Below, in pieces: positions 1-11,078 of a stretch of 11,078 nucleotides of DNA. The stretch comes from a virus (taxonomy: Duplodnaviria > Heunggongvirae > Uroviricota > Caudoviricetes). A model generated the notes under the pieces. The model was not told the DNA's origin. It saw only the letters and a program-made list of their open reading frames with translations, and made no database searches. Positions within the stretch are counted from its first letter, which is position 1; every line of letters starts with the position of its first letter. The stretch lies in the IMG/VR virus record IMGVR_UViG_641522623_000003, positions 1 through 11,078 of that record. One strand, written 5' to 3'. Position numbers and translations under genes: made by a program.

Positions 1-477
1 ATGAAACTCATCAGTAACGATCTGCGCGATGGCGATAAATTGCCGCATCGTCATGTCTTTAACGGCATGGGTTACGATGGCGATAATATTTCACCGCATC
101 TGGCGTGGGATGATGTTCCTGCGGGAACGAAAAGTTTTGTTGTCACCTGCTACGACCCGGATGCGCCAACCGGCTCCGGCTGGTGGCACTGGGTAGTTGT
201 TAACTTACCCGCTGATACCCGCGTATTACCGCAAGGGTTTGGCTCTGGTCTGGTAGCAATGCCAGACGGCGTTTTGCAGACGCGTACCGACTTTGGTAAA
301 ACCGGGTACGATGGCGCAGCACCGCCGAAAGGCGAAACTCATCGCTACATTTTTACCGTTCACGCGCTGGATATAGAACGTATTGATGTCGATGAAGGTG
401 CCAGCGGCGCGATGGTCGGGTTTAACGTTCATTTCCACTCTCTGGCAAGCGCCTCGATTACTGCGATGTTTAGTTAA
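1..477 (+). CDS. ybhB: PEBP/RKIP-family protein YbhB (host gene on the bio side of attB)
   Basis: 158-aa ORF starting at window position 1 and ending TAA 475..477. The translation (…DPDAPTGSGWWHWVVVNLP…HRYIFTVHALD…) is recognised as E. coli YbhB. Recognition is from memory, not a search. Confidence 0.9.
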   Translation: MKLISNDLRDGDKLPHRHVFNGMGYDGDNISPHLAWDDVPAGTKSFVVTCYDPDAPTGSGWWHWVVVNLPADTRVLPQGFGSGLVAMPDGVLQTRTDFGKTGYDGAAPPKGETHRYIFTVHALDIERIDVDEGASGAMVGFNVHFHSLASASITAMFS

Positions 478-485
478 TCACTCTG

Positions 486-508
486 CCAGATGGCGCAATG
501 CCATCTGG
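486..508 (+). terminator. Stem-loop just after ybhB stop (possible ybhB terminator)
   Basis: Perfect 9-bp inverted repeat CCAGATGGC (486..494) / GCCATCTGG (500..508) with a 5-nt loop, 8 nt after the ybhB stop. The downstream U-tract is weak (TATCACTT). Confidence 0.35.
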
Positions 509-567
509 TATCACTTAAAGGTATTAAAAACAACTTTTTGTCTTTTTACCTTCCCGTTTCGCTCAAG

Positions 568-582
568 TTAGTATAAAAAAGC
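568..582 (-). other. attR core (15-bp lambda-type overlap/core sequence)
   Basis: TTAGTATAAAAAAGC is the reverse complement of GCTTTTTTATACTAA. It is flanked on the ybhB side by CGCTCAAG (B' arm) and on the prophage side by CTGAAC... (P arm). Confidence 0.9.
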
Positions 583-728
583 TGAACCAGAAACAGAAAA
601 AATCATTAATATCAATCCCTTACAATACATTTGGCTTAAAAAATAGACTGTATAATACTGCAAAACACATCATATCCAGTCACTATGAATCAACTACTTA
701 GATAGTATTAGTGACCTGTAACAGAGCA
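583..728 (-). promoter_or_regulatory. attR P-arm (Int arm-type, IHF and Xis binding region), lambda-like but divergent
   Basis: Contains an arm-type Int site CAGTCACTAT (677..686) and TTAGTGACCTG (~709..719). The segment 677..728 matches my recollection of lambda P arm closely, whereas 583..676 differs at many positions. Confidence 0.7.
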
Positions 729-768
729 TTAGCGCAAGGTGATTTTTGTCTTCTTGCGCTAATTTTTT
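729..768 (+). terminator. tI / sib-type hairpin (lambda int retroregulation terminator)
   Basis: Perfect 10-bp stem TTAGCGCAAG (729..738) / CTTGCGCTAA (753..762) with a 14-nt loop, followed by TTTTTT (763..768). Sequence GCGCAAGGTGATTTTTGTCTTCTTGCGC is as I recall for lambda tI/sib. Confidence 0.7.
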
Positions 769-832
769 GTCGTAAAATCGGTAACGGCTGGAAATCATTC
801 AATACTCGCACTATCGAACATCCATCAGCCAG

Positions 833-865
833 CCGTGGCACGTTCTTGCATACGACGTGCCACGG
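833..865 (+). terminator. Second stem-loop in b-region remnant
   Basis: Perfect 10-bp stem CCGTGGCACG (833..842) / CGTGCCACGG (856..865) with a 13-nt loop, followed by TTTCATTTAT. Function unknown. Confidence 0.3.
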
Positions 866-1238
866 TTTCATTTATCTCCGCCCGGAAACTTCTTATACAA
901 AGTCGATACGCCAACATCATAGATGATCGCCACCTTCTGGCGAGAAACTCCTGATGCAATTAGTCGTCCAGCCTGCGCTCATTGCTCCGGCGTGAGAGTA
1001 AGACAGTAAACTGTAGAAAAATCTCATTAAACTTAATATAATAATAAGTTACAAAATTATCTTTACTGAATAATAGATATATGAACATTAGTGAACTTAA
1101 AAACTGTATACACTATGAAGTAATAGGTTATAAACGCCCTTTCTCCTGGCGAAAAGCAATTGTTCGCGCAATAAAACACAGAAGATTACGTTATTTATTT
1201 TGGTGGCGCATAGCAAAATATCTGGTAATGACTCCAAC

Positions 1239-1616
1239 TTATTGATAGTGTTTTATGTTCAGATAATGCCCGATGATTTTGTCATGCAGCTCCACCGATT
1301 TTGAGAACGACAGCGACTTCCGTCCCAGCCGTGCCAGGTGCTGCCTCAGATTCAGGTTATGCCGCTCAATGCGCTGAGTGTAACGCTTGCTGATAACGTG
1401 CAGCTTTCCCTTCAGGCGGGATTCATACAGCGGCCAGCCATCCGTCATCCATATCACCACGTCAAAGGGTGACAGCAGGCTCATAAGACGCCCCAGCGTC
1501 GCCATAGTGCGTTCACCGAATACGTGCGCAACAACCGTCTTCCGGAGCCTGTCATACGCGTAAAACAGCCAGCGCTGGCGCGATTTAGCCCCGACGTATC
1601 CCCACTGTTCGTCCAT
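1239..1616 (-). CDS. insB: IS1 insB reading frame (C-terminal catalytic part of InsAB' transposase)
   Basis: 125-aa track [25 protein letters not shown]…HYLNIKHYQ. The insB frame extends upstream to the A6C site. The nominal insB ATG (minus strand 1742..1740) is followed by TAG at codon 11 (1712..1710), where copy B has TGG. Confidence 0.85.
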
Positions 1617-1660
1617 TTCCGCGCAGACGATGACGTCACTGCCCGGCTGTATGCGCGAGG

Positions 1661-1936
1661 TTACCGACTGCGGCCTGAGTTTTTTAAGTGACGTAAAATC
1701 GTGTTGAGGCTAACGCCCATAATGCGTGCAGTTGCCCGGCATCCAACGCCATTCATGGCCATATCAATGATTTTCTGGTGCGTACCGGGTTGAGAAGCGG
1801 TGTAAGTGAACTGCAGTTGCCATGTTTTACGGCAGTGAGAGCAGAGATAGCGCTGATGTCCGGCGGTGCTTTTGCCGTTACGCACCACCCCGTCAGTAGC
1901 TGAACAGGAGGGACAGCTGATAGAAACAGAAGCCAC
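1661..1936 (-). CDS. insA: IS1 InsA (transposition repressor / N-terminal part of InsAB' transposase)
   Basis: 91-aa [42 protein letters not shown]…, the canonical IS1 InsA with its zinc-finger Cys motif. Confidence 0.9.
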
Positions 1937-2024
1937 TGGAGCACCTCAAAAACACCATCATACACTAAATCAGTAAGTTGGCAGCATCACCCGTTTTTCG
2001 TTATGTATAAATAAGGAGCACACC

Positions 2025-2189
2025 ATGCAATATGCCATTGCAGGGTGGCCTGTTGCTGGCTGCCCTTCCGAATCTTTACTTGAACGAATCACCCGTAAAT
2101 TACGTGACGGATGGAAACGCCTTATCGACATACTTAATCAGCCAGGAGTCCCGAAAAATGGATCAAACAATTATGGCTATCCAGACTAA
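2025..2189 (+). CDS. cIII: Lambda cIII (FtsH/HflB protease inhibitor, stabilises CII)
   Basis: ATG 2025, stop TAA 2187..2189. Translation [54 protein letters not shown] (54 aa). Upstream TTATGTATAAATAAGGAGCACACC includes the RBS. The gene is below the ORF-track length cutoff. Confidence 0.85.
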   Translation: MQYAIAGWPVAGCPSESLLERITRKLRDGWKRLIDILNQPGVPKNGSNNYGYPD

Positions 2190-2301
2190 ATTCACTATCG
2201 CCACTTTTATTGGCGATGAAAAGATGTTTCGTGAGGCCGTCGACGCTTATAAAAAATGGATATTAATACAGAAACTGAGATCAAGCAAAAGCATTCACTA
2301 A
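2158..2301 (+). CDS. kil: Lambda Kil (host cell-division inhibitor)
   Basis: 47-aa [50 protein letters not shown]. It overlaps the cIII 3' end by 32 nt as in lambda. The longer track ORF 2032..2301 is an upstream extension of this frame. Confidence 0.8.
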
Positions 2302-2376
2302 CCCCCTTTCCTGTTTTCCTAATCAGCCTGGCATTTCGCGGGCGATATTTTCACAGCCATTTTCAGGAGTTCAGCC

Positions 2377-2673
2377 ATGAACGCTTATTACATTCAGGAT
2401 CGTCTTGAGGCTCAGAGCTGGGCACGTCACTACCAGCAGATCGCCCGTGAAGAGAAAGAGGCAGAACTGGCAGACGACATGGAAAAAGGCCTGCCCCAGC
2501 ACCTGTTTGAATCGCTATGCATCGATCATTTGCAACGCCACGGGGCCAGCAAAAAAGCCATTACCCGTGCGTTTGATGACGATGTTGAGTTTCAGGAGCG
2601 CATGGCAGAACACATCCGGTACATGGTTGAAACCATTGCTCACCACCAGATTGATATTGATTCAGAGGTATAA
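2377..2673 (+). CDS. gam: Lambda Gam, short form (RecBCD inhibitor)
   Basis: 98-aa [63 protein letters not shown]…, recognised as lambda GamS. The upstream long-form start (ATG 2256) is out of frame here. Confidence 0.9.
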
Positions 2674-2678
2674 AACGG

Positions 2679-3464
2679 ATGAGTACAGCACTCGCAACGC
2701 TGGCTGGGAAGCTGGCTGAACGTGTCGGCATGGATTCTGTCGACCCACAGGAACTGATCACAACTCTTCGCCAGACGGCATTTAAATGTGATGCCAGCGA
2801 TGCGCAGTTCATCGCATTGTTGATCGTCGCCAACCAGTACGGCCTTAATCCGTGGACGAAAGAAATCTACGCCTTCCCTGATAAGCAGAACGGCATCGTT
2901 CCGGTGGTGGGCGTTGATGGCTGGTCCCGCATCATCAATGAAAACCAGCAGTTTGATGGCATGGACTTTGAGCAGGACAATGAATCCTGTACATGCCGGA
3001 TTTACCGCAAGGACCGTAATCATCCGATCTGCGTTACCGAATGGATGGATGAATGCCGCCGCGAACCATTCAAAACTCGCGAAGGCAGAGAAATCACGGG
3101 GCCGTGGCAGTCGCATCCCAAACGGATGTTACGGCATAAAGCTATGATTCAGTGTGCCCGTCTCGCCTTCGGATTTGCTGGTATCTATGACAAGGATGAA
3201 GCCGAGCGCATTGTCGAAAATACCGCATACACTGCAGAACGTCAGCCGGAACGCGACATCACTCCGGTTAACGATGAAACCATGCAGGAGATTAACACTC
3301 TGCTGATCGCCCTGGATAAAACATGGGATGACGACTTATTGCCGCTCTGTTCCCAGATATTTCGCCGCGACATTCGCGCATCGTCAGAACTGACACAGGC
3401 CGAAGCAGTGAAAGCTCTTGGATTCCTGAAACAGAAAGCCACTGAGCAGAAGGTGGCAGCATGA
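2679..3464 (+). CDS. bet: Lambda Bet (Red-beta single-strand annealing protein)
   Basis: 261-aa [38 protein letters not shown]…, full length. Start lies 6 nt after the gam stop. Confidence 0.95.
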
Positions 3465-4141
3465 CACCGGACATTATCCTGCAGCGTACCGGGATCGACG
3501 TGAGAGCTGTCGAACAGGGGGATGATGCATGGCACAAATTACGGCTCGGCGTCATCACCGCTTCAGAAGTTCACAACGTGATAGCAAAGCCCCGCTCAGG
3601 AAAGAAGTGGCCTGACATGAAAATGTCCTACTTCCACACCCTGCTGGCTGAGGTTTGCACCGGTGTGGCTCCGGAAGTTAATGCTAAGGCGCTGGCCTGG
3701 GGAAAACAGTACGAGAACGACGCCAGAACCCTGTTTGAATTCACTTCCGGCGTGAATGTTACTGAATCCCCGATCATCTATCGCGACGAAAATATGCGCA
3801 CTGCCTGCTCTCCCGATGGTTTATGCAGTGACGGCAACGGCCTTGAGCTGAAATGCCCGTTTACCTCCCGGGATTTCATGAAGTTCCGGCTCGGTGGTTT
3901 CGAGGCCATAAAGTCGGCTTACATGGCCCAGGTGCAGTACAGCATGTGGGTGACACGTAAAGATGCCTGGTACTTTGCCAACTATGACCCGCGTATGAAG
4001 CGTGAAGGACTGCATTATGTCGTGGTTGAGCGGGATGAAAAGTACATGGCGAGTTTTGACGAGATGGTGCCGGAGTTCATCGAAAAAATGGACGAGGCAC
4101 TGGCTGAAATTGGTTTTGTATTTGGGGAGCAATGGCGATGA
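3461..4141 (+). CDS. exo: Lambda Exo (Red-alpha 5'-3' dsDNA exonuclease)
   Basis: 226-aa [41 protein letters not shown]…, full length. ATGA overlap with the bet stop. Confidence 0.95.
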
Positions 4142-4320
4142 CGCATCCTCACGATAATATCCGGGTAGGCGCAATCACTTTCGTCTACTCCGTTACAAAG
4201 CGAGGCTGGGTATTTCCCGGCCTTTCTGTTATCCGAAATCCACTGAAAGCACAGCGGCTGGCTGAGGAGATAAATAATAAACGAGGGGCTGTATGCACAA
4301 AGCATCTCCTGTTGAGTTAA
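4138..4320 (+). CDS. Lambda exo-xis region protein, orf60a-like
   Basis: 60-aa [63 protein letters not shown], starting in an ATGA overlap with the exo stop. An alternative ATG at 4132 would give 62 aa. Position and length match lambda orf60a. Confidence 0.7.
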
Positions 4321-4484
4321 GAACGAGTATCGAGATGGCACATAGCCTTGCTCAAATTGGAATCAGGTTTGTGCCAATACCAGTAGAAACAGACGAAGAA
4401 TTTCATACGTTAGCCACATCCCTTTCACAAAAACTGGAAATGATGGTGGCGAAAGCAGAAGCAGATGAGAGAGACCAGGTATGA
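4293..4484 (+). CDS. Lambda exo-xis region protein, orf63-like
   Basis: 63-aa [66 protein letters not shown]. It overlaps orf60a by 28 nt, the same arrangement as lambda orf60a/orf63. Confidence 0.65.
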   Translation: MHKASPVELRTSIEMAHSLAQIGIRFVPIPVETDEEFHTLATSLSQKLEMMVAKAEADERDQV

Positions 4485-4494
4485 CAACCACTGA

Positions 4495-4776
4495 ATGCAT
4501 TTTTCTGGCAGCGGGCTTCATATTCTGTGTGCTTATGCTTGCCGACATGGGGCTTGTTCAGTGACACCTCAGCAGGAAAACGCCCTTCGCAGCATTGCCC
4601 GTCAGGCTAATTCTGAAATCAAAAAAGCCAGACAGCAGTTTCCGGATAAAAACGTCGATGACATTTGCCGTAGCGTACTGAAGAAGCACCGCGAAACGGT
4701 AACGCTGATGGGATTCACACCGACTCATTTAAGCCTAGCAATCGGCATGTTAAACGGCGTTTTTAAGGAACGGTGA
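4495..4776 (+). CDS. Hypothetical protein in exo-xis region (occupies the lambda orf61 position but differs in length)
   Basis: 93-aa ORF; start uncertain, with an in-frame GTG at 4561 as an alternative. An ATG at 4465 in the same frame is followed by TGA at 4492..4494. A 27-codon hydrophobic ORF (4481..4564, MTTTECIFLAAGFIFCVLMLADMGLVQ) overlaps in another frame. Confidence 0.45.
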   Translation: MHFSGSGLHILCAYACRHGACSVTPQQENALRSIARQANSEIKKARQQFPDKNVDDICRSVLKKHRETVTLMGFTPTHLSLAIGMLNGVFKER

Positions 4777-4798
4777 ACATGAAAAGCAAAATCATCAG

Positions 4799-4820
4799 GG
4801 AGCTACAGGCTCCTTTTTTA
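4799..4820 (+). terminator. Weak stem-loop plus U-tract
   Basis: GGAGC (4799..4803) / GCTCC (4809..4813) 5-bp stem followed by TTTTTTA. Lies between the hypothetical ORF and the TraR-like ORF. Confidence 0.25.
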
Positions 4821-4874
4821 TTATTCGCATTCACCCTCAAGCGTATTAACCAACAATTCAGGGATTAATGAAAG

Positions 4875-5096
4875 ATGGCAGACATCATTGATTCAGCATC
4901 AGAAATTGAAGAATTACAGCGCAACACAGCAATAAAAATGCGCCGCCTGAACCACCAGGCTATATCTGCCACTCATTGTTGTGAGTGTGGCGATCCGATA
5001 GATGAACGAAGACGCCTGGCCGTTCAGGGTTGTCGGACTTGTGCAAGTTGCCAGGAGGATCTGGAACTTATCAGTAAACAGAGAGGTTCGAAGTGA
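4875..5096 (+). CDS. TraR/DksA-family C4 zinc-finger protein (lambda Orf73-like)
   Basis: 73-aa ORF with CxxC…(17)…CxxC (CCECGDPIDERRRLAVQGCRTCASC). Size and position between orf61 and ea22 fit the lambda TraR homologue. Confidence 0.8.
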   Translation: MADIIDSASEIEELQRNTAIKMRRLNHQAISATHCCECGDPIDERRRLAVQGCRTCASCQEDLELISKQRGSK

Positions 5097-5506
5097 GCGT
5101 AATTCACTCTCAGGCACTGCGTGAAGCGGCAGAGCAGGCAATGCATGACAACTGGGGATTTGACGCGGACCTTTTCCATGAGCTGGTAACACCATCGATT
5201 GTGCTGACACTGCTGGATGAACGGGAAAGAAACCAGCAGTACATCAAACGCCGCGACCAGGAGAACGAGGATATTGCGCTAACGGTGAGGAAACTGCGTG
5301 TTGAGCTGGAGACAGCAAAAATCAAAACTCAACGAGCAGCGTGAGTAGAAGGTGTTATCTCGGATGGAAGTAAGCGTATTGCTGAACTGGAGGCCTGGGT
5401 TGAATACACAAGAGCTGCATACGTAAGAGCAAAAGACAAGGGAGATTTGATCAGAGTTATTACCCGACAACCAACGGGATTTTACGCTTACGTACCATGT
5501 AATTAG
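5093..5506 (+). pseudogene. ea22-like gene, interrupted by in-frame TGA and shortened
   Basis: GTG start 5093 overlaps the upstream stop. 83 codons (MSVIHSQALREAAEQAMHDNWGFDADLF…) run to TGA 5342..5344. The same frame then stays open for 53 more codons (VEGVISDGSKRIAELEAWVEYTRAAYVRAKDKGDL…) to TAG 5504..5506, with no in-frame start. Confidence 0.45.
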
Positions 5507-5590
5507 GAATCCTTGAAGTGGCAGCCTAACTGCGGATACACTGAAATGGCGATTTGGTAACATGTTTCGCACAAGGGTAGTGACTCCAAC

Positions 5591-6094
5591 TTACTGATAG
5601 TGTTTTATGTTCAGATAATGCCCGATGACCTTGTCATGCAGCTCCACCGATTTTGAGAACGACAGCGACTTCCGTCCCAGCCTTGCCAGATGTTGTCTCA
5701 GATTCAGATTATGTCGCTCAATGCGCTGAGTGTAACGCTTGCTGATAACGTGCAGCTTTCCCTTCAGGCGTGATTCATACAGCGGCCAGCCATCCGTCAT
5801 CCATACCACGACCTCAAAGGCCGACAGCAGGCTCAGAAGACGCTCCAGTGTGGCCAGAGTGCGTTCACCGAAAACGTGCGCCACAACTGTCCTCCGTATC
5901 CTGTCATACGCGTAAAACAGCCAGCGCTGACGTGATTTAGCACCGACGTAGCCCCACTGTTCGTCCATTTCCGCGCAGACGATGACGTCACTGCCCGGCT
6001 GTATGCGCGAGGTTACCGACTGCGGCCTGAGTTTTTTAAATGGCGGAAAATCGTGTTGAGGCCAACGCCCATAATGCGGGCGGTTGCCCGGCAT
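5591..6094 (-). CDS. insB: IS1 InsB (full 167-aa insB frame)
   Basis: 167-aa [19 protein letters not shown]…[10 protein letters not shown]6C frameshift motif present (plus-strand GAGTTTTTTAAA, ~6029..6040). Confidence 0.9.
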
Positions 6095-6288
6095 CCAACG
6101 CCATTCATGGCCATATCAATGATTTTCTGGTGCGTACCGGGTTGAGAAGCGGTGTAAGTGAACTGCAGTTGCCATGTTTTACGGCAGTGAGAGCAGAGAT
6201 AGCGCTGATGTCCGGCAGTGCTTTTGCCGTTACGCACCACCCCGTCAGTAGCTGAACAGGAGGGACAGCTGATAGAAACAGAAGCCAC
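6013..6288 (-). CDS. insA: IS1 InsA
   Basis: 91-aa ORF, 2 aa different from copy A (…[19 protein letters not shown]). Confidence 0.9.
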
Positions 6289-6400
6289 TGGAGCACCTCA
6301 AAAACACCATCATACACTAAATCAGTAAGTTGGCAGCATCACCCGCTTAAAGATAATCAGCCATGATTAAACGCTTTGTAAAAAGTAAAAGGAAATTACA

Positions 6401-7015
6401 ATGAAAAAATCAATACTAATTTTAGGGCTTACGTTAATTGTCTCATCTCAAATACCATCGGCAATGGCAAAAAATGAATCAAGACTTTGGGTTGTTGTTG
6501 ATCGAACGGAAAGACATACCTGCCCTTCAAGTAAATGTGGAGTGGCTGGGAAACTATTTTTCAGGGAAGGCGTAGATTTTCTAGAAAAAAAAGGTGAATG
6601 GGTTCGTATAACTGAGCCATATTCAGCCTCATGTGTGGGAGGGGAAAGCGAATATATTAAAGAAGGTAATAAATCCTGCACAAGAAAAAACGGAATCGTC
6701 AATGGCAAGTTTTCAGAATGGGTTAAACTTAGTGATCTTAGCAGTGAAAGGCCATCAGATCCTGCTGAAAATGCGAGCGGAGATGATACTTTAATCAAAG
6801 GATCTGATGACTACCGTATATACAAAAAAGAGTTTTCTTCGGCAGCTAGGAAGTTAATAAACGAAGGGGTCTGCACGGAAAGCGACTTTAAGGAAATCGG
6901 AGGGTGGATGGCATCAAGCAATAAGGGGAAAAACATCTATTTCACATATTGCGGAGGAATGACGTTGTCGAACAGAATATACCTAGACGTTAAAAGTGGA
7001 AAGACTTTTAGATAA
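6401..7015 (+). CDS. Secreted (Sec signal peptide) Cys-containing hypothetical protein, accessory cargo
   Basis: 204-aa ORF with RBS AAGGA 8 nt upstream. N-terminus MKKSILILGLTLIVSSQIPSAMA↓KNE is a typical signal peptide with AxA cleavage site and no lipobox. Mature part has 6 Cys. The gene is visibly AT-rich versus the flanking lambda genes. No family recognised by eye. Confidence 0.7.
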   Translation: MKKSILILGLTLIVSSQIPSAMAKNESRLWVVVDRTERHTCPSSKCGVAGKLFFREGVDFLEKKGEWVRITEPYSASCVGGESEYIKEGNKSCTRKNGIVNGKFSEWVKLSDLSSERPSDPAENASGDDTLIKGSDDYRIYKKEFSSAARKLINEGVCTESDFKEIGGWMASSNKGKNIYFTYCGGMTLSNRIYLDVKSGKTFR

Positions 7016-7086
7016 TATGATATTACCAATGACAGTATTAATTTAATGCCTCCATAGAATTATCTCTAGGAAGTATGTATAAGAAA

Positions 7087-7120
7087 AGCCCGCACAATGA
7101 GCTGCTGCGGGCTTTGTGTT
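7087..7120 (+). terminator. Rho-independent terminator candidate downstream of secreted-protein gene
   Basis: Stem AGCCCGCA (7087..7094) / TGCGGGCT (7106..7113) with an 11-nt loop, followed by TTGTGTT. Confidence 0.5.
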
Positions 7121-7308
7121 ATTCGCCATATTTTATGAAGCAAATACGACACTATAGATAATTAAGCGTTGCTGGTTGTCGATTCCTCACTCACTCCTGT
7201 TGATGGCTCTCTTCTTGTATGTGCCATTGAAGGGTAATATCGAGTAAAAAGATACCGGAAGTATCCGCGCCGCCATGATTGTCTTTCTCCTAATGCAGGA
7301 AAAGCAGA

Positions 7309-7428
7309 ATGGCTAAATCATCAGCAGAGCGCAAAGTCGATCAGAGAGCCAAGCAAGCATCATCCGGTATGCGTAAGCTGGAGCTTGTACTTGATGCTCA
7401 GGAAATTGAAATGCTGGATCGTAACTGA
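7309..7428 (+). CDS. Small hypothetical ORF (39 aa) whose frame continues past its TGA stop
   Basis: ATG 7309 with AGGAAA 10 nt upstream. Translation MAKSSAERKVDQRAKQASSGMRKLELVLDAQEIEMLDRN, stop TGA 7426..7428. The same frame continues 72 codons to TAA 7645..7647 (ATRRFRHAPYEFGEYIALLSRQDDARVRWRIKSISRKRCGKCGERVPVNSCPCNGDSQCWVTKGWHETKLMI) with no ATG. Confidence 0.35.
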   Translation: MAKSSAERKVDQRAKQASSGMRKLELVLDAQEIEMLDRN

Positions 7429-7675
7429 GCCACGCGCCGCTTCAGGCATGCGCCTTACGAGTTTGGTGAGTACATCGCGTTACTGAGCCGCCAGGATGAT
7501 GCACGTGTGCGCTGGCGTATAAAATCGATCAGCAGAAAACGTTGCGGTAAGTGCGGCGAGAGAGTTCCTGTTAATTCATGCCCGTGTAATGGTGACTCAC
7601 AATGCTGGGTGACCAAAGGCTGGCACGAAACAAAATTAATGATATAAATCTCTGTGACATGTCACGGAGGCGGCA

Positions 7676-8104
7676 ATGAAATTAGACCAGCAATATCTAA
7701 AAGATCTACTTATCGCATTCGAAAAAACTCATGGCCCTGACACGATGCTTAGTGAACTAGAGGATAATGGCTTTAATAGATATGACCAAAATTTTATTTT
7801 CCATATGCGATTATTATGCGACTACGAATTAATAGTCAGGGTTGATGGAAAACCTGGGTTCGGTCATATAATGTCCAACGAGTTAGGGGAAGGTGTTGGA
7901 TATAGTTGGATCGAAGTACCACTGAGGTTGACAGCAAGAGGGCATGATTTTATTGCTGACTTGCGTCAAAAGGAGGTCTGGCAAACTATAAAAACAAACT
8001 TTAAGGATGAGGGAATTAGTACACTAATAAGTGTTTCAAAATCACTAGCAAAAGGCTTTGCAAGGAAAAAGATAAAAGATATTACAGGAATAGATATTGA
8101 ATAA
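7676..8104 (+). CDS. DUF2513-like hypothetical protein (putative winged-helix), accessory cargo at the lambda ea8.5 position
   Basis: 142-aa ORF with strong RBS GGAGG (7666..7670) 5 nt before the ATG. AT-rich codon usage. The motif …RLTARGHDFIADLRQKEVWQTIK… and a basic C-terminal tail resemble my memory of DUF2513 proteins (…LTWxGHEFLDAIRD…VW…). Confidence 0.65.
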   Translation: MKLDQQYLKDLLIAFEKTHGPDTMLSELEDNGFNRYDQNFIFHMRLLCDYELIVRVDGKPGFGHIMSNELGEGVGYSWIEVPLRLTARGHDFIADLRQKEVWQTIKTNFKDEGISTLISVSKSLAKGFARKKIKDITGIDIE

Positions 8105-8186
8105 TTCTTAGCATCAGCAACTACTGCCTTTGGTGGAAATTATATCTGAACTCGCTACGGCGAGTTTTGTTTTATGGAGATGATAA

Positions 8187-8354
8187 ATGCACTTCCGAGT
8201 CACAGGTGAATGGAATGGAGAACCATTCAACAGAGTTATCGAAGCAGAGAACATCAATGACTGCTATGACCACTGGATGATATGGGCGCAGATAGCACAT
8301 GCAGACATAACCAATATTCGAATTGAAGAACTGAAAGAACACCAAGCCGCCTGA
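8187..8354 (+). CDS. Small lambda-like ORF upstream of xis (orf55-like)
   Basis: 55-aa ORF MHFRVTGEWNGEPFNRVIEAENINDCYDHWMIWAQIAHADITNIRIEELKEHQAA with RBS GGAGA 7 nt upstream. Length and position match the small ORF lambda carries between ea8.5 and xis. Confidence 0.55.
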   Translation: MHFRVTGEWNGEPFNRVIEAENINDCYDHWMIWAQIAHADITNIRIEELKEHQAA

Positions 8355-8366
8355 TGGCGGTTTTTT
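8346..8366 (+). terminator. Short stem-loop plus U-tract between orf55-like and xis
   Basis: CCGCC (8347..8351) / GGCGG (8356..8360) with loop TGAT, followed by TTTTTT (8361..8366). It overlaps the orf55 stop codon. Confidence 0.4.
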
Positions 8367-8393
8367 CTTGCGTGTAATTGCGGAGACTTTGCG

Positions 8394-8612
8394 ATGTACT
8401 TGACACTTCAGGAGTGGAACGCTCGCCAGCGACGCCCAAGAAGCCTTGAAACAGTTCGTCGATGGGTGCGCGAATGCAGGATATTCCCTCCTCCGGTTAA
8501 GGATGGAAGAGAATATCTGTTCCACGAATCAGCGGTAAAGGTTGACTTAAATCGACCAGTAACAGGTAGCCTTTTGAAGAGGATCAGAAATGGGAAGAAG
8601 GCGAAGTCATGA
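8394..8612 (+). CDS. xis: Lambda excisionase Xis
   Basis: 72-aa ORF MYLTLQEWNARQRRPRSLETVRRWVRECRIFPPPVKDGREYLFHESAVKVDLNRPVTGSLLKRIRNGKKAKS. Its 3' end overlaps int by 23 nt as in lambda. Confidence 0.92.
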   Translation: MYLTLQEWNARQRRPRSLETVRRWVRECRIFPPPVKDGREYLFHESAVKVDLNRPVTGSLLKRIRNGKKAKS

Positions 8613-9660
8613 GCGCCGGGATTTACCCCCTAACCTTTATATAAGAAACAATGGATATTACTGCTACAGGGACCCAAGGACGGGTAAAGAGTTTGGATTA
8701 GGCCGAGACAGGCGAATCGCAATCACTGAAGCTATACAGGCCAACATTGAGTTATTTTCAGGACACAAACACAAGCCTCTGACAGCGAGAATCAACAGTG
8801 ATAATTCCGTTACGTTACATTCATGGCTTGATCGCTACGAAAAAATCCTGGCCAGCAGAGGAATCAAGCAGAAGACACTCATAAATTACATGAGCAAAAT
8901 TAAAGCAATAAGGAGGGGTCTGCCTGATGCTCCACTTGAAGACATCACCACAAAAGAAATTGCGGCAATGCTCAATGGATACATAGACGAGGGAAAGGCG
9001 GCATCAGCCAAGTTAATCAGATCAACACTGAGCGATGCATTCCGAGAGGCTATGGCTGAAGGCCATATAACAACAAACCCGGTCGCAGCCACTCGCGCTG
9101 CAAAATCAGAGGTAAGGAGATCAAGACTTACGGCTGACGAATACCTGAAAATTTATCAAGCAGCAGAATCATCACCATGTTGGCTTAGACTTGCAATGGA
9201 ACTGGCTGTTGTTACCGGGCAGCGAGTTGGTGATTTATGCGAAATGAAGTGGTCTGATATCGTAGATGGATATCTTTATGTCGAGCAAAGCAAAACAGGC
9301 GTAAAAATTGCCATCCCAACAACATTGCATGTTGATGCTCTCGGGATATCAATGAAGGAAACACTTGATAAATGCAAAAAGATTCTTGGCGGAGAAACCA
9401 TAATTGCATCTACTCGTCGTGAACCGCTTTCATCCGGCACAGTATCAAGGTATTTTATGCGCGCACGAAAAGCATCAGGTCTCTCCTTCGAAGGGGATCC
9501 GCCAACCTTTCACGAGTTGCGCAGTTTGTCTGCAAGACTCTATGAGAAGCAGATAAGCGATAAATTTGCTCAACATCTTCTCGGGCATAAGTCGGACACC
9601 ATGGCATCACAGTATCGTGATGACAGAGGCAGGGAGTGGGACAAAATTGAAATCAAATAA
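8590..9660 (+). CDS. int: Lambda integrase Int (tyrosine recombinase)
   Basis: 356-aa ORF MGRRRSHERRDLPPNLYIRNNGYYCYRDPRTGKEFGLGRDRR… ending …HLLGHKSDTMASQYRDDRGREWDKIEIK. It carries the tyrosine-recombinase residues (…HELRSLSARLY…, catalytic Tyr in SQY) and is transcribed toward attL/ybhC. Confidence 0.95.
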   Translation: MGRRRSHERRDLPPNLYIRNNGYYCYRDPRTGKEFGLGRDRRIAITEAIQANIELFSGHKHKPLTARINSDNSVTLHSWLDRYEKILASRGIKQKTLINYMSKIKAIRRGLPDAPLEDITTKEIAAMLNGYIDEGKAASAKLIRSTLSDAFREAMAEGHITTNPVAATRAAKSEVRRSRLTADEYLKIYQAAESSPCWLRLAMELAVVTGQRVGDLCEMKWSDIVDGYLYVEQSKTGVKIAIPTTLHVDALGISMKETLDKCKKILGGETIIASTRREPLSSGTVSRYFMRARKASGLSFEGDPPTFHELRSLSARLYEKQISDKFAQHLLGHKSDTMASQYRDDRGREWDKIEIK

Positions 9661-9733
9661 TGATTTTATTTTGACTGATAGTGACCTGTTCGTTGCAACA
9701 AATTGATAAGCAATGCTTTTTTATAATGCCAAC
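9661..9733 (-). promoter_or_regulatory. attL P'-arm (Int arm-type sites P'1-P'3, IHF H' site)
   Basis: Reverse complement reads …TTGCTTATCAATTTGTTGCAACGAACAGGTCACTATCAGTCAAAATAAAATCA…, matching the lambda P' arm as I recall it. Arm-type repeats AGGTCACTATCAGTCAAAAT correspond to ~9670..9689. Confidence 0.8.
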
Positions 9734-9748
9734 TTAGTATAAAAAAGC
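9734..9748 (-). other. attL core (15-bp lambda-type overlap/core sequence)
   Basis: TTAGTATAAAAAAGC, identical to 568..582. Followed by AGGCTTCA, the reverse complement of the attB B arm TGAAGCCT. Confidence 0.9.
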
Positions 9749-9794
9749 AGGCTTCAACGGATTCATTTTTCTATTTCATAGCCCGGAGCAACCT

Positions 9795-11078
9795 GTGAAC
9801 ACATTTTCAGTTTCCCGTCTGGCGCTGGCATTGGCTTTTGGCGTGACGCTGACCGCCTGTAGCTCAACCCCGCCCGATCAACGTCCTTCTGATCAAACCG
9901 CGCCTGGTACCTCTTCTCGCCCGATTCTGTCGGCAAAAGAAGCGCAGAATTTCGATGCTCAACACTATTTTGCATCCCTGACACCAGGTGCTGCAGCGTG
10001 GAATCCTTCCCCGATTACCCTGCCTGCGCAACCTGAATTTGTTGTCGGCCCGGCGGGCACTCAAGGTGTAACGCATACCACGATTCAGGCGGCGGTAGAT
10101 GCGGCAATTATCAAGCGTACCAACAAGCGCCAGTATATTGCCGTGATGCCTGGTGAGTATCAGGGAACGGTATATGTCCCTGCCGCTCCGGGTGGAATTA
10201 CTCTGTACGGTACAGGTGAAAAACCGATTGATGTGAAGATTGGGCTTTCCCTTGATGGTGGCATGAGCCCTGCCGACTGGCGTCACGACGTCAACCCGCG
10301 CGGCAAATATATGCCAGGTAAACCAGCGTGGTATATGTACGATAGCTGCCAGAGCAAACGCAGCGACAGTATCGGTGTTCTCTGCTCTGCGGTCTTCTGG
10401 TCACAAAACAATGGCCTGCAACTGCAAAATCTGACCATCGAAAACACGCTGGGCGATAGCGTAGATGCAGGTAACCATCCGGCGGTGGCACTGCGTACTG
10501 ATGGTGACCAGGTACAGATTAACAACGTTAACATTCTCGGTCGTCAGAACACCTTCTTTGTCACCAACAGCGGTGTGCAGAACCGTCTGGAAACGAATCG
10601 TCAGCCGCGTACGCTGGTGACCAACAGCTACATTGAAGGGGATGTGGATATCGTTTCTGGTCGCGGCGCAGTGGTGTTCGATAACACCGAATTCCGCGTG
10701 GTGAACTCACGTACTCAGCAAGAAGCGTATGTGTTTGCACCGGCTACGCTGTCCAACATTTACTACGGTTTCCTCGCCGTAAACAGCCGTTTCAATGCTT
10801 TCGGTGATGGTGTGGCGCAACTGGGCCGCTCGCTGGATGTTGATGCCAATACCAACGGTCAGGTGGTGATCCGTGATAGCGCCATCAACGAAGGTTTTAA
10901 CACGGCTAAACCGTGGGCCGATGCGGTGATCTCTAATCGTCCGTTTGCGGGTAATACCGGCAGCGTAGATGATAACGACGAAATACAGCGCAATCTGAAT
11001 GACACTAACTACAACCGCATGTGGGAATACAATAACCGCGGCGTGGGTAGTAAAGTGGTTGCAGAGGCGAAGAAGTAA
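9795..11078 (+). CDS. ybhC: Pectinesterase-family (CE8-like) outer-membrane lipoprotein YbhC
   Basis: 427-aa ORF with GTG start 9795 and lipoprotein signal MNTFSVSRLALALAFGVTLTAC (lipobox LTAC). Mature part has the right-handed beta-helix character of pectin methylesterases; recognised as E. coli YbhC. Stop at window end (TAA 11076..11078). Confidence 0.9.
   Translation: MNTFSVSRLALALAFGVTLTACSSTPPDQRPSDQTAPGTSSRPILSAKEAQNFDAQHYFASLTPGAAAWNPSPITLPAQPEFVVGPAGTQGVTHTTIQAAVDAAIIKRTNKRQYIAVMPGEYQGTVYVPAAPGGITLYGTGEKPIDVKIGLSLDGGMSPADWRHDVNPRGKYMPGKPAWYMYDSCQSKRSDSIGVLCSAVFWSQNNGLQLQNLTIENTLGDSVDAGNHPAVALRTDGDQVQINNVNILGRQNTFFVTNSGVQNRLETNRQPRTLVTNSYIEGDVDIVSGRGAVVFDNTEFRVVNSRTQQEAYVFAPATLSNIYYGFLAVNSRFNAFGDGVAQLGRSLDVDANTNGQVVIRDSAINEGFNTAKPWADAVISNRPFAGNTGSVDDNDEIQRNLNDTNYNRMWEYNNRGVGSKVVAEAKK

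Follow-up and report, generated by a model that had tools for sequence, protein, structure and literature searches.

The window analysed here, a stretch of 11,078 nt (IMG/VR virus record IMGVR_UViG_641522623_000003, positions 1 to 11,078), contains an element of 9,181 bp which is delimited by two copies of the phage lambda attachment core and lies between the Escherichia coli genes ybhB and ybhC. We consider it highly probable that this element is the defective remnant of a mosaic lambdoid prophage, which was cut down by a deletion associated with the insertion sequence (IS) IS1 and is now largely silent and locked in place. All 11,078 bases of the window are 100% identical to the genome of E. 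coli ATCC 8739 (Crooks; NZ_CP022959.1, positions 3138477-3149554), and the identical structure was found in three more assemblies, namely a second ATCC 8739 assembly, KCTC 2571 and B-3008. An initial annotation of the window had described a cryptic lambda-type prophage of about 9.2 kb. At the level of the sequence, our comparisons support every element of that interpretation, with amendments. Absent from it were the two IS1 copies, approximately 3.2 kb of non-lambda sequence (778-1223 and 5392-8138) and the commonness of attB occupants. The coordinates of all features are collected in Table 1.

The 15-bp core of lambda, GCTTTTTTATACTAA on the minus strand, occurs in two exact copies only, and in 200 dinucleotide-preserving shuffles no match was obtained, even at one mismatch. 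If one mismatch is tolerated, the repeat stretches to 19 nt. The direct core repeats thus delimit the element as had been proposed. The host side of core copy 1 reads CTTGAGCG, which we take to be the canonical B' sequence of lambda attB. For an empty-site query, window positions 283-582 were joined to 9749-10048, which leaves a single core within 600 nt. This query yielded a one-piece match of 100% identity to the ybhB-ybhC attB of many E. coli genomes. Reconstitution of the empty site from the host flanks had been set beforehand as the test of whether both cores belong to a single integration event, and the observation is confirmed. Next to ybhB the junction has the arrangement P-O-B', next to ybhC the arrangement B-O-P', and int adjoins attL, which is the order expected of a lambda prophage. 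These observations support the view that the element stems from a single Int-mediated integration at the primary lambda attB.

For the determination of the endpoints, an alignment with lambda (BLAST) was established, as the initial annotation had suggested. Three homologous blocks were obtained: window positions 564-777, 1992-5391 and 8139-9748, with the joint at IS1 copy 1. The second block matches lambda 33496-30094 at 97.5% and runs from just upstream of cIII into ea22, and the third matches lambda 29333-27724 at 97.9% and includes orf55, xis, int, the P' arm and the core. These two large blocks (at least 97% identical to lambda) make up 55% of the element and the two IS1 copies 17%. The remainder is non-lambda and consists of a 446-bp fragment of the b-arm (778-1223) and of accessory DNA (5392-5575 and 6344-8138). 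The alignment and the full-length reading frames confirm that both att arms, int, xis and the recombination end of the pL operon were kept. Int, a tyrosine integrase of 356 aa, differs from its lambda counterpart by five substitutions and has all six catalytic residues (R212, K235, H308, R311, H333 and Y342), Xis carries one substitution (G59S), and the products of cIII, kil, gam, bet, exo, orf60a, orf63 and orf55 are full-length with zero to four substitutions each. The respective Pfam domains were recovered in Int (Arm-DNA-bind_1, 7e-33; Phage_integrase, 2.5e-40) and in Xis (Exc, 4e-41).

Between the cores, the RefSeq annotation contains no N, repressor, cro, cII, O, P, Q, lysis, head or tail gene, and no N, repressor, replication, lysis, head or tail gene was seen there in the list of open reading frames (ORFs) either. 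The promoter pL is absent along with N. Immunity, replication, lysis and virion genes are present in the related prophages of 81EVA and EP91B. The element, which lacks the genes for immunity, replication, lysis and virion assembly, is a defective (cryptic) prophage, and the losses named in the initial annotation can be extended by pL.

Both IS1 copies have the same orientation and are 95.1% identical to each other. Copy 1 has complete terminal repeats and no target-site duplication; its flanks are AAAATATCT on the left and CGTTTTTCG on the right. The left flank corresponds to nt 144 of a 546-nt serine acetyltransferase gene, the right flank to the spacer between ea10 and cIII, 33 nt upstream of the cIII start codon. 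The two points flanking copy 1 sit 31.3 kb apart in the 81EVA prophage (record positions 1876686-1907979), and the interval between them comprises ea10, sieB, the repressor gene, cro, cII, O, P, ren, the nin genes, Q and the lysis, terminase, head and tail genes. An IS1 at the joint, the missing duplication and flanks which are distant in a relative together give the joint the signature expected of an IS1-associated deletion. Such a deletion at 1224-1991 would explain the reduction of the prophage to 9.2 kb.

According to the mechanism which we propose, the parent phage would have integrated into ATCC 8739 by Int-mediated recombination of attP with attB between ybhB and ybhC. A deletion reaching from within the serine acetyltransferase gene of the b-arm to the position 33 nt upstream of cIII would then have taken the tail, head, lysis, Q, nin, replication, immunity and N genes together with pL. 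This may have occurred by intramolecular transposition of IS1 or by recombination of two direct IS1 copies; both routes yield the same product and are indistinguishable here. One IS1 without target duplication would have remained at the joint, and the second IS1 would lie downstream of the ea22 fragment. Copy 2 also has no duplication, and in comparison with PSJ-12, 81EVA and phage Chlobot about 10 bp of its target are gone and two nearby single-nucleotide polymorphisms are found. EP91B carries an independent IS1 at a distance of 54 nt from the position of copy 2, which has the normal 9-bp duplication. Deletions adjacent to IS1 were reportedly described by Reif and Saedler in 1975. ‘Grounded’ prophages are among the subjects of Ramisetty and Sudhakari (2019; PMC6379469). 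The Crooks element resembles these cases in the IS at the joint without target duplication and in an immobilised prophage that erodes in situ. It is a textbook instance with nothing unusual about it.

Phage Chlobot (PP925838; approximately 97.9%) and, similarly (approximately 98%), the attB prophages of PSJ-12, 81EVA and EP91B are collinear with the Crooks element from cIII to the core, the non-lambda accessory genes included. The attB prophage of 81EVA, which spans about 40 kb, has both the b-arm and the early-left arm of the Crooks element. Homology to lambda ends inside ea22 at position 5391, and since the same short ea22 fragment is annotated in PSJ-12, 81EVA and EP91B, this break represents a mosaic joint of the phage lineage and not decay in this host. 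In contrast to the Crooks element, Chlobot, 81EVA, EP91B and PSJ-12 still contain all or part of the N, immunity, replication, lysis and structural modules, and they have neither IS1 at the Crooks positions. The comparisons indicate that the parent was a mosaic lambdoid phage and not lambda, in which lambda-type int, xis, att and Red genes were combined with a different b-arm and ea region.

The two att arms differ in their similarity to lambda. The core and the P arm (564-777) are 87.9% identical to lambda 27742-27529 in the BLAST alignment, and the differences are concentrated between the core and P2. Assuming that the lambda att map can be transferred, the sites of the P arm are located at approximately 610-622 (H2), 642-654 (X2) and 662-674 (X1), at 677-686 (P2) and 688-700 (H1) and at approximately 707-719 (P1). 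P1, H1, P2 and sib are kept according to the alignments with lambda, Chlobot and HK97; within the segment P2-H1-P1-sib/tI there is a single change relative to lambda, located between H1 and P1 and common to HK97. The H2 site for integration host factor (IHF) has kept its consensus letters. Many of the variant positions of the P arm are shared with HK97, a viable phage with the same attB. The 120 nt adjoining the core on the int side are 100% identical to lambda. The att sites and the genes of the element appear competent, should Int and Xis be supplied or induced.

In lambda, xis and int are transcribed from pL with N antitermination, and int alone is transcribed from the cII-activated promoter pI. 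The cII box of pI is intact in the remnant and the cII gene is absent from it. Upstream of xis, terminator-like hairpins (8148-8167 and 8344-8363) would restrict transcription that reads through from more distant upstream positions. Both IS1 transposase genes are directed away from the phage genes, and at the right end of IS1 copy 1 the promoter scan revealed no promoter-like site facing the Red genes. Because pL and N were deleted and pI is left without cII, the remnant is predicted to be transcriptionally almost silent, non-self-excising and locked in place. The apparently intact Int, Xis and att sites noted at first hold as far as frames, catalytic residues and arms can be judged from sequence; activity is not implied, with pL, N and cII gone. 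If a superinfecting lambda-type phage provided Int and Xis in trans, excision of the remnant should still be possible. As attB is split, an incoming lambda-type phage would be limited to attL/attR, to homology with the remnant or to secondary sites. It could lysogenise via Int at attL or attR, or via homology to approximately 5 kb of DNA with 97-98% identity. Tandem integration by phages with a common att site is well described (PMC8112680).

Several points weigh against the interpretation of the element as a silent remnant shaped by an IS1-associated deletion. The size of 31.3 kb was read off a relative, 81EVA, which itself lacks distal tail genes, and the exact parent is unavailable; as these tail genes had already been lost in 81EVA, the original deletion was probably larger than 31.3 kb. 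IS1 copy 2, too, has no target duplication. In the P arm one of 13 positions of X1 and three of 13 positions of X2 are changed relative to lambda, which renders the predicted excision efficiency uncertain even with Int and Xis. The predicted silence and lack of self-excision are deduced from absent promoters and regulators, and a candidate hybrid promoter at the right-hand border of IS1 copy 2 could drive a certain amount of rightward transcription in the direction of xis and int. This site matches the consensus at 10 of 12 positions, directly faces the 204-aa ORF and is the sole promoter-like site facing xis and int; the whole scan returned 15 sites versus 13.9 expected, which is the chance level. 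Nothing contradicts the anatomy of the element. We regard it as quite unlikely that the hybrid promoter is constitutive for the 204-aa and DUF2513 genes with some read-through to xis and int, resulting in a host phenotype or in low constitutive excision, and that, separately, the split attB and the approximately 5 kb of homology redirect lysogeny. If true, redirection of incoming phages would mean tandem insertion at attL/attR, replacement or the formation of hybrid phages in Crooks.

A related alternative is that the remnant was domesticated, i.e., that the host keeps expressed and useful genes such as the Red genes, the 204-aa and DUF2513 genes or a low-level Int/Xis driven by the IS1 hybrid promoter. 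In favour of this, none of the eleven reading frames homologous to lambda is disrupted, not even that of the potentially toxic kil, and the promoter-like site across the border between IS1 copy 2 and phage DNA points toward the accessory genes as well as xis and int. Bobay et al. reportedly found in 2014 that defective prophages of E. coli are under purifying selection, and according to Prentki et al. in 1986 IS1 insertions are said to be able to create functional promoters. However, a recent deletion predicts intact frames equally, the promoter scan is at chance level with no site facing the Red genes at IS1 copy 1, the accessory ORFs match no defence family and two of their neighbours are pseudogenes. 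Moreover, the structure is confined to one lineage with four assemblies, which offers no divergence after the deletion for a test of selection. Since there is only this single lineage and the intact frames may reflect a recent deletion, domestication under host selection has no positive support and appears improbable to us.

The arrangement of the IS1 copies might also suggest a composite transposon which moves the Red genes, as two 768-bp elements of the same orientation and 95% identity bracket the 3.6-kb cIII-kil-gam-bet-exo segment (1992-5575). A duplication bracketing the unit is missing, though, and its outer flanks differ (AAAATATCT on the left versus CGCTTAAAG on the right). None of at least 5000 matching plasmid records covers 80% of the unit, among E. 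coli genomes it is confined to the ATCC 8739 lineage, and the enclosed segment follows the normal phage order, so both IS1 must have arrived in place; mobilisation as a unit is thus very improbable. A naturally small, helper-dependent integrative element or phage satellite with lambda-type Int and att would likewise be small, would carry its own int, xis and both att sites and would do without structural genes. Here, however, the IS1 joint cuts a gene at nt 144, both of its sides are collinear with prophages or phages of at least 40 kb, and other strains carry different truncations of similar prophages at the same site; in addition, annotation and Pfam revealed no replication module, cos site, capsid gene or packaging-redirection gene. 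The truncation breakpoints refute such a satellite or PICI-like origin, to which we assign next to no probability. The identity of 97-98% between lambda and the int/xis and Red blocks could finally point to a leftover of laboratory lambda itself, or the structure could be an assembly artefact. An identity of 97.5% with 77 mismatches corresponds to natural divergence, though, and 45% of the element consists of non-lambda DNA. Four independent assemblies show exactly the same structure, and each block is found in natural isolates. Divergence, mosaicism and the four assemblies refute this explanation as well, and it can hardly be credited.

Table 1. Features of the window, in order of position (ybhB and ybhC lie outside the element).
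Feature	Position	Strand	Basis or remark
ybhB	1-477	+	Host flank, bio side of attB; RefSeq annotation NZ_CP022959.1
att core copy 1, O of attR (P-O-B')	568-582	-	Exact repeat search, shuffles
P arm of attP, now in attR	583-777	-	Alignments with lambda, Chlobot, HK97
sib/tI hairpin	~719-768		Position from HK97 annotation
Pseudogenised helix-turn-helix fragment	868-996	-	Annotation; b-arm, non-lambda
Serine acetyltransferase gene, first 144 of 546 nt, cut by IS1	1081-1224	+	Annotation, breakpoint comparison
IS1 copy 1, 768 bp, deletion joint	1224-1991	-	Annotation, flank comparison
cIII	2025-2189	+	Distal pL operon; full-length
kil	2158-2301	+	Distal pL operon; full-length
gam	2377-2673	+	Full-length, 98-aa Gam
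bet	2679-3464	+	Full-length
exo	3461-4141	+	Full-length
orf60a	4138-4320	+	Full-length
orf63	4293-4484	+	Full-length
Hypothetical ORF	4561-4776	+	Annotation
TraR/DksA zinc-finger ORF	4875-5096	+	Annotation, Pfam
ea22 N-terminal fragment	5141-5392	+	Annotation
IS1 copy 2, 768 bp	5576-6343	-	Annotation, repeat search
Candidate hybrid promoter	6330-6357	+	-35 TTGGCA in IS1 copy 2 end, 16-nt spacer, -10 GATAAT in phage DNA
204-aa ORF, no family	6401-7015	+	Annotation, Pfam
Pseudogene, truncated ‘DNA repair protein’	7169-7234	+	Annotation
Pseudogene, ORF with internal stop	7309-7647	+	Annotation
DUF2513 ORF	7676-8104	+	Annotation, Pfam
orf55	8187-8354	+	Full-length
cII box of pI, TTGCGTGTAATTGC	8368-8381	+	Sequence comparison
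xis	8394-8612	+	Full-length
int	8590-9660	+	Full-length
P' arm	9661-9733	+	Identical to lambda
att core copy 2, O of attL (B-O-P')	9734-9748	-	Exact repeat search, shuffles
ybhC	9795-11078	+	Host flank, gal side of attB; RefSeq annotation

The non-lambda segments provide further information on the parent lineage. The serine acetyltransferase gene, which is cut in Crooks, is present at full length in FDAARGOS_1277 and 81EVA. In TUM12357, pinE, encoding a site-specific DNA invertase, is annotated under the match to the b-arm stretch 778-1223 that includes the helix-turn-helix fragment. Probably, an inversion switch for tail fibres was once present beside attP in the parent lineage. For the two pseudogenes downstream of the 204-aa ORF, the matching interval of phage Chlobot is annotated with a UmuD-like protein and a regulator. 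The internal stop of the ORF at 7309-7647 is annotated in PSJ-12 too, and not in 81EVA or EP91B. A role of the non-lambda ORFs in defence or anti-defence was considered and rejected: PADLOC returned nothing meaningful, and Pfam identified only DUF2513 and the TraR/DksA zinc finger.

The sequence of FDAARGOS_1277 is 100% identical to window positions 1-1223 (1,223 nt, from ybhB to the acetyltransferase gene). This genome (NZ_CP070103.1, 8702-16397) carries another IS1-truncated attB remnant, comprising the b-arm, an intact acetyltransferase gene, tail-fibre genes, IS1, Eag, xis and int. Its int and ybhC differ from those of the window despite the identity of the b-arm. The identical b-arm may derive either from shared descent or from a partial exchange of the site by recombination.

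Lambda itself agrees with the Crooks element in the gene order int-xis...exo-bet-gam-kil-cIII, and its core and P' arm are identical to those of the element. Five of 356 residues of Int and one of 72 residues of Xis differ between the two. By contrast, the P arms agree at 88%, other genes stand in place of the ea22/ea8.5 region in Crooks, and the b region is different. Laboratory ‘cryptic’ lambda lysogens, in which immunity was lost and the prophage ends were kept, were reportedly obtained by Fischer-Fantuzzi and Calef in 1964. They represent the same deletion class, with the centre lost and the att ends kept; unlike them, the Crooks deletion is associated with IS1 and is found in a natural isolate. 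In the course of the database searches, PLSDB ‘plasmids’ of 48,499-48,502 bp (Salmonella, Stenotrophomonas maltophilia and Paenibacillus sonchi) were encountered which are lambda-sized and match the lambda-homologous block at 97.5%; these matches cover query positions 869-4268 with the same identity as lambda's own. The same applies to ‘Campylobacter phage CJLB-4’ (48,361 bp), whose query span, coverage, identity and bit score equal those of lambda. The lambda-sized PLSDB records and CJLB-4 look like lambda control DNA which was carried into the assemblies.

The remnant of E. coli B (‘{lambda}B’, REL606 787.9-800 kb) occupies the same ybhC-ybhB site, has a lambda-type int and an identical Xis (WP_001303849.1), and is likewise devoid of immunity and replication genes and of most structural genes. 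Its interior differs from that of the Crooks element, as it contains ASCH, DUF4752, terminase fragments and acyltransferases and no Red genes. It arose independently, by decay of a different lambdoid phage. In BL21(DE3), DE3 is located at attB (748-791 kb) with no trace of a REL606-type remnant in this region. The attB remnant of the B lineage was evidently no bar to lysogenisation by a lambda derivative, and it may have been replaced in the process. In Table 2 of Archer et al. (2011; BMC Genomics 12:9; PMC3032704) a lambda-type element is given at ‘ybhC-ybhB’ for B and for Crooks. The ‘{lambda}Cr’ of that table agrees in strain (ATCC 8739, CP000946), site and lambda-type class with the element described here and corresponds to it. 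In the table ‘{lambda}Cr’ is only listed; the att arms, the IS1 breakpoints, the mosaic origin and the state of Int and Xis are added in this work. The element is thus already catalogued and is an ordinary, textbook example of a common kind.

How common this kind is can be seen from 5,426 complete E. coli genomes. An uninterrupted ybhB-ybhC attB was found in 3,492 of them, and 1,911 contain the same junction of int, P', core and ybhC (at least 80% coverage). Together the two classes comprise 5,403 genomes, and consequently about 35% of the sequenced E. coli carry a lambda-int element at attB. All five relatives that were opened (5/5) are eroded, in most cases heavily, by IS insertions, deletions or, mostly, both: REL606 contains a remnant of approximately 12 kb at attB, FDAARGOS_1277 an IS1-truncated one of approximately 5.6 kb, and PSJ-12 one of approximately 18 kb in which N is fused to nin; 81EVA has an IS5 and has lost tail genes, and EP91B has three IS insertions.

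Beyond bookkeeping, the significance of the element is small. The genome counts show that attB is a heavily used and erosion-prone site. ATCC 8739 is a standard quality-control and industrial strain. For users of lambda-att integration or lambda lysogeny in this strain, it is relevant that attB is occupied, that an intact lambda-type Int and Xis are encoded and that homology to the Red genes is present.

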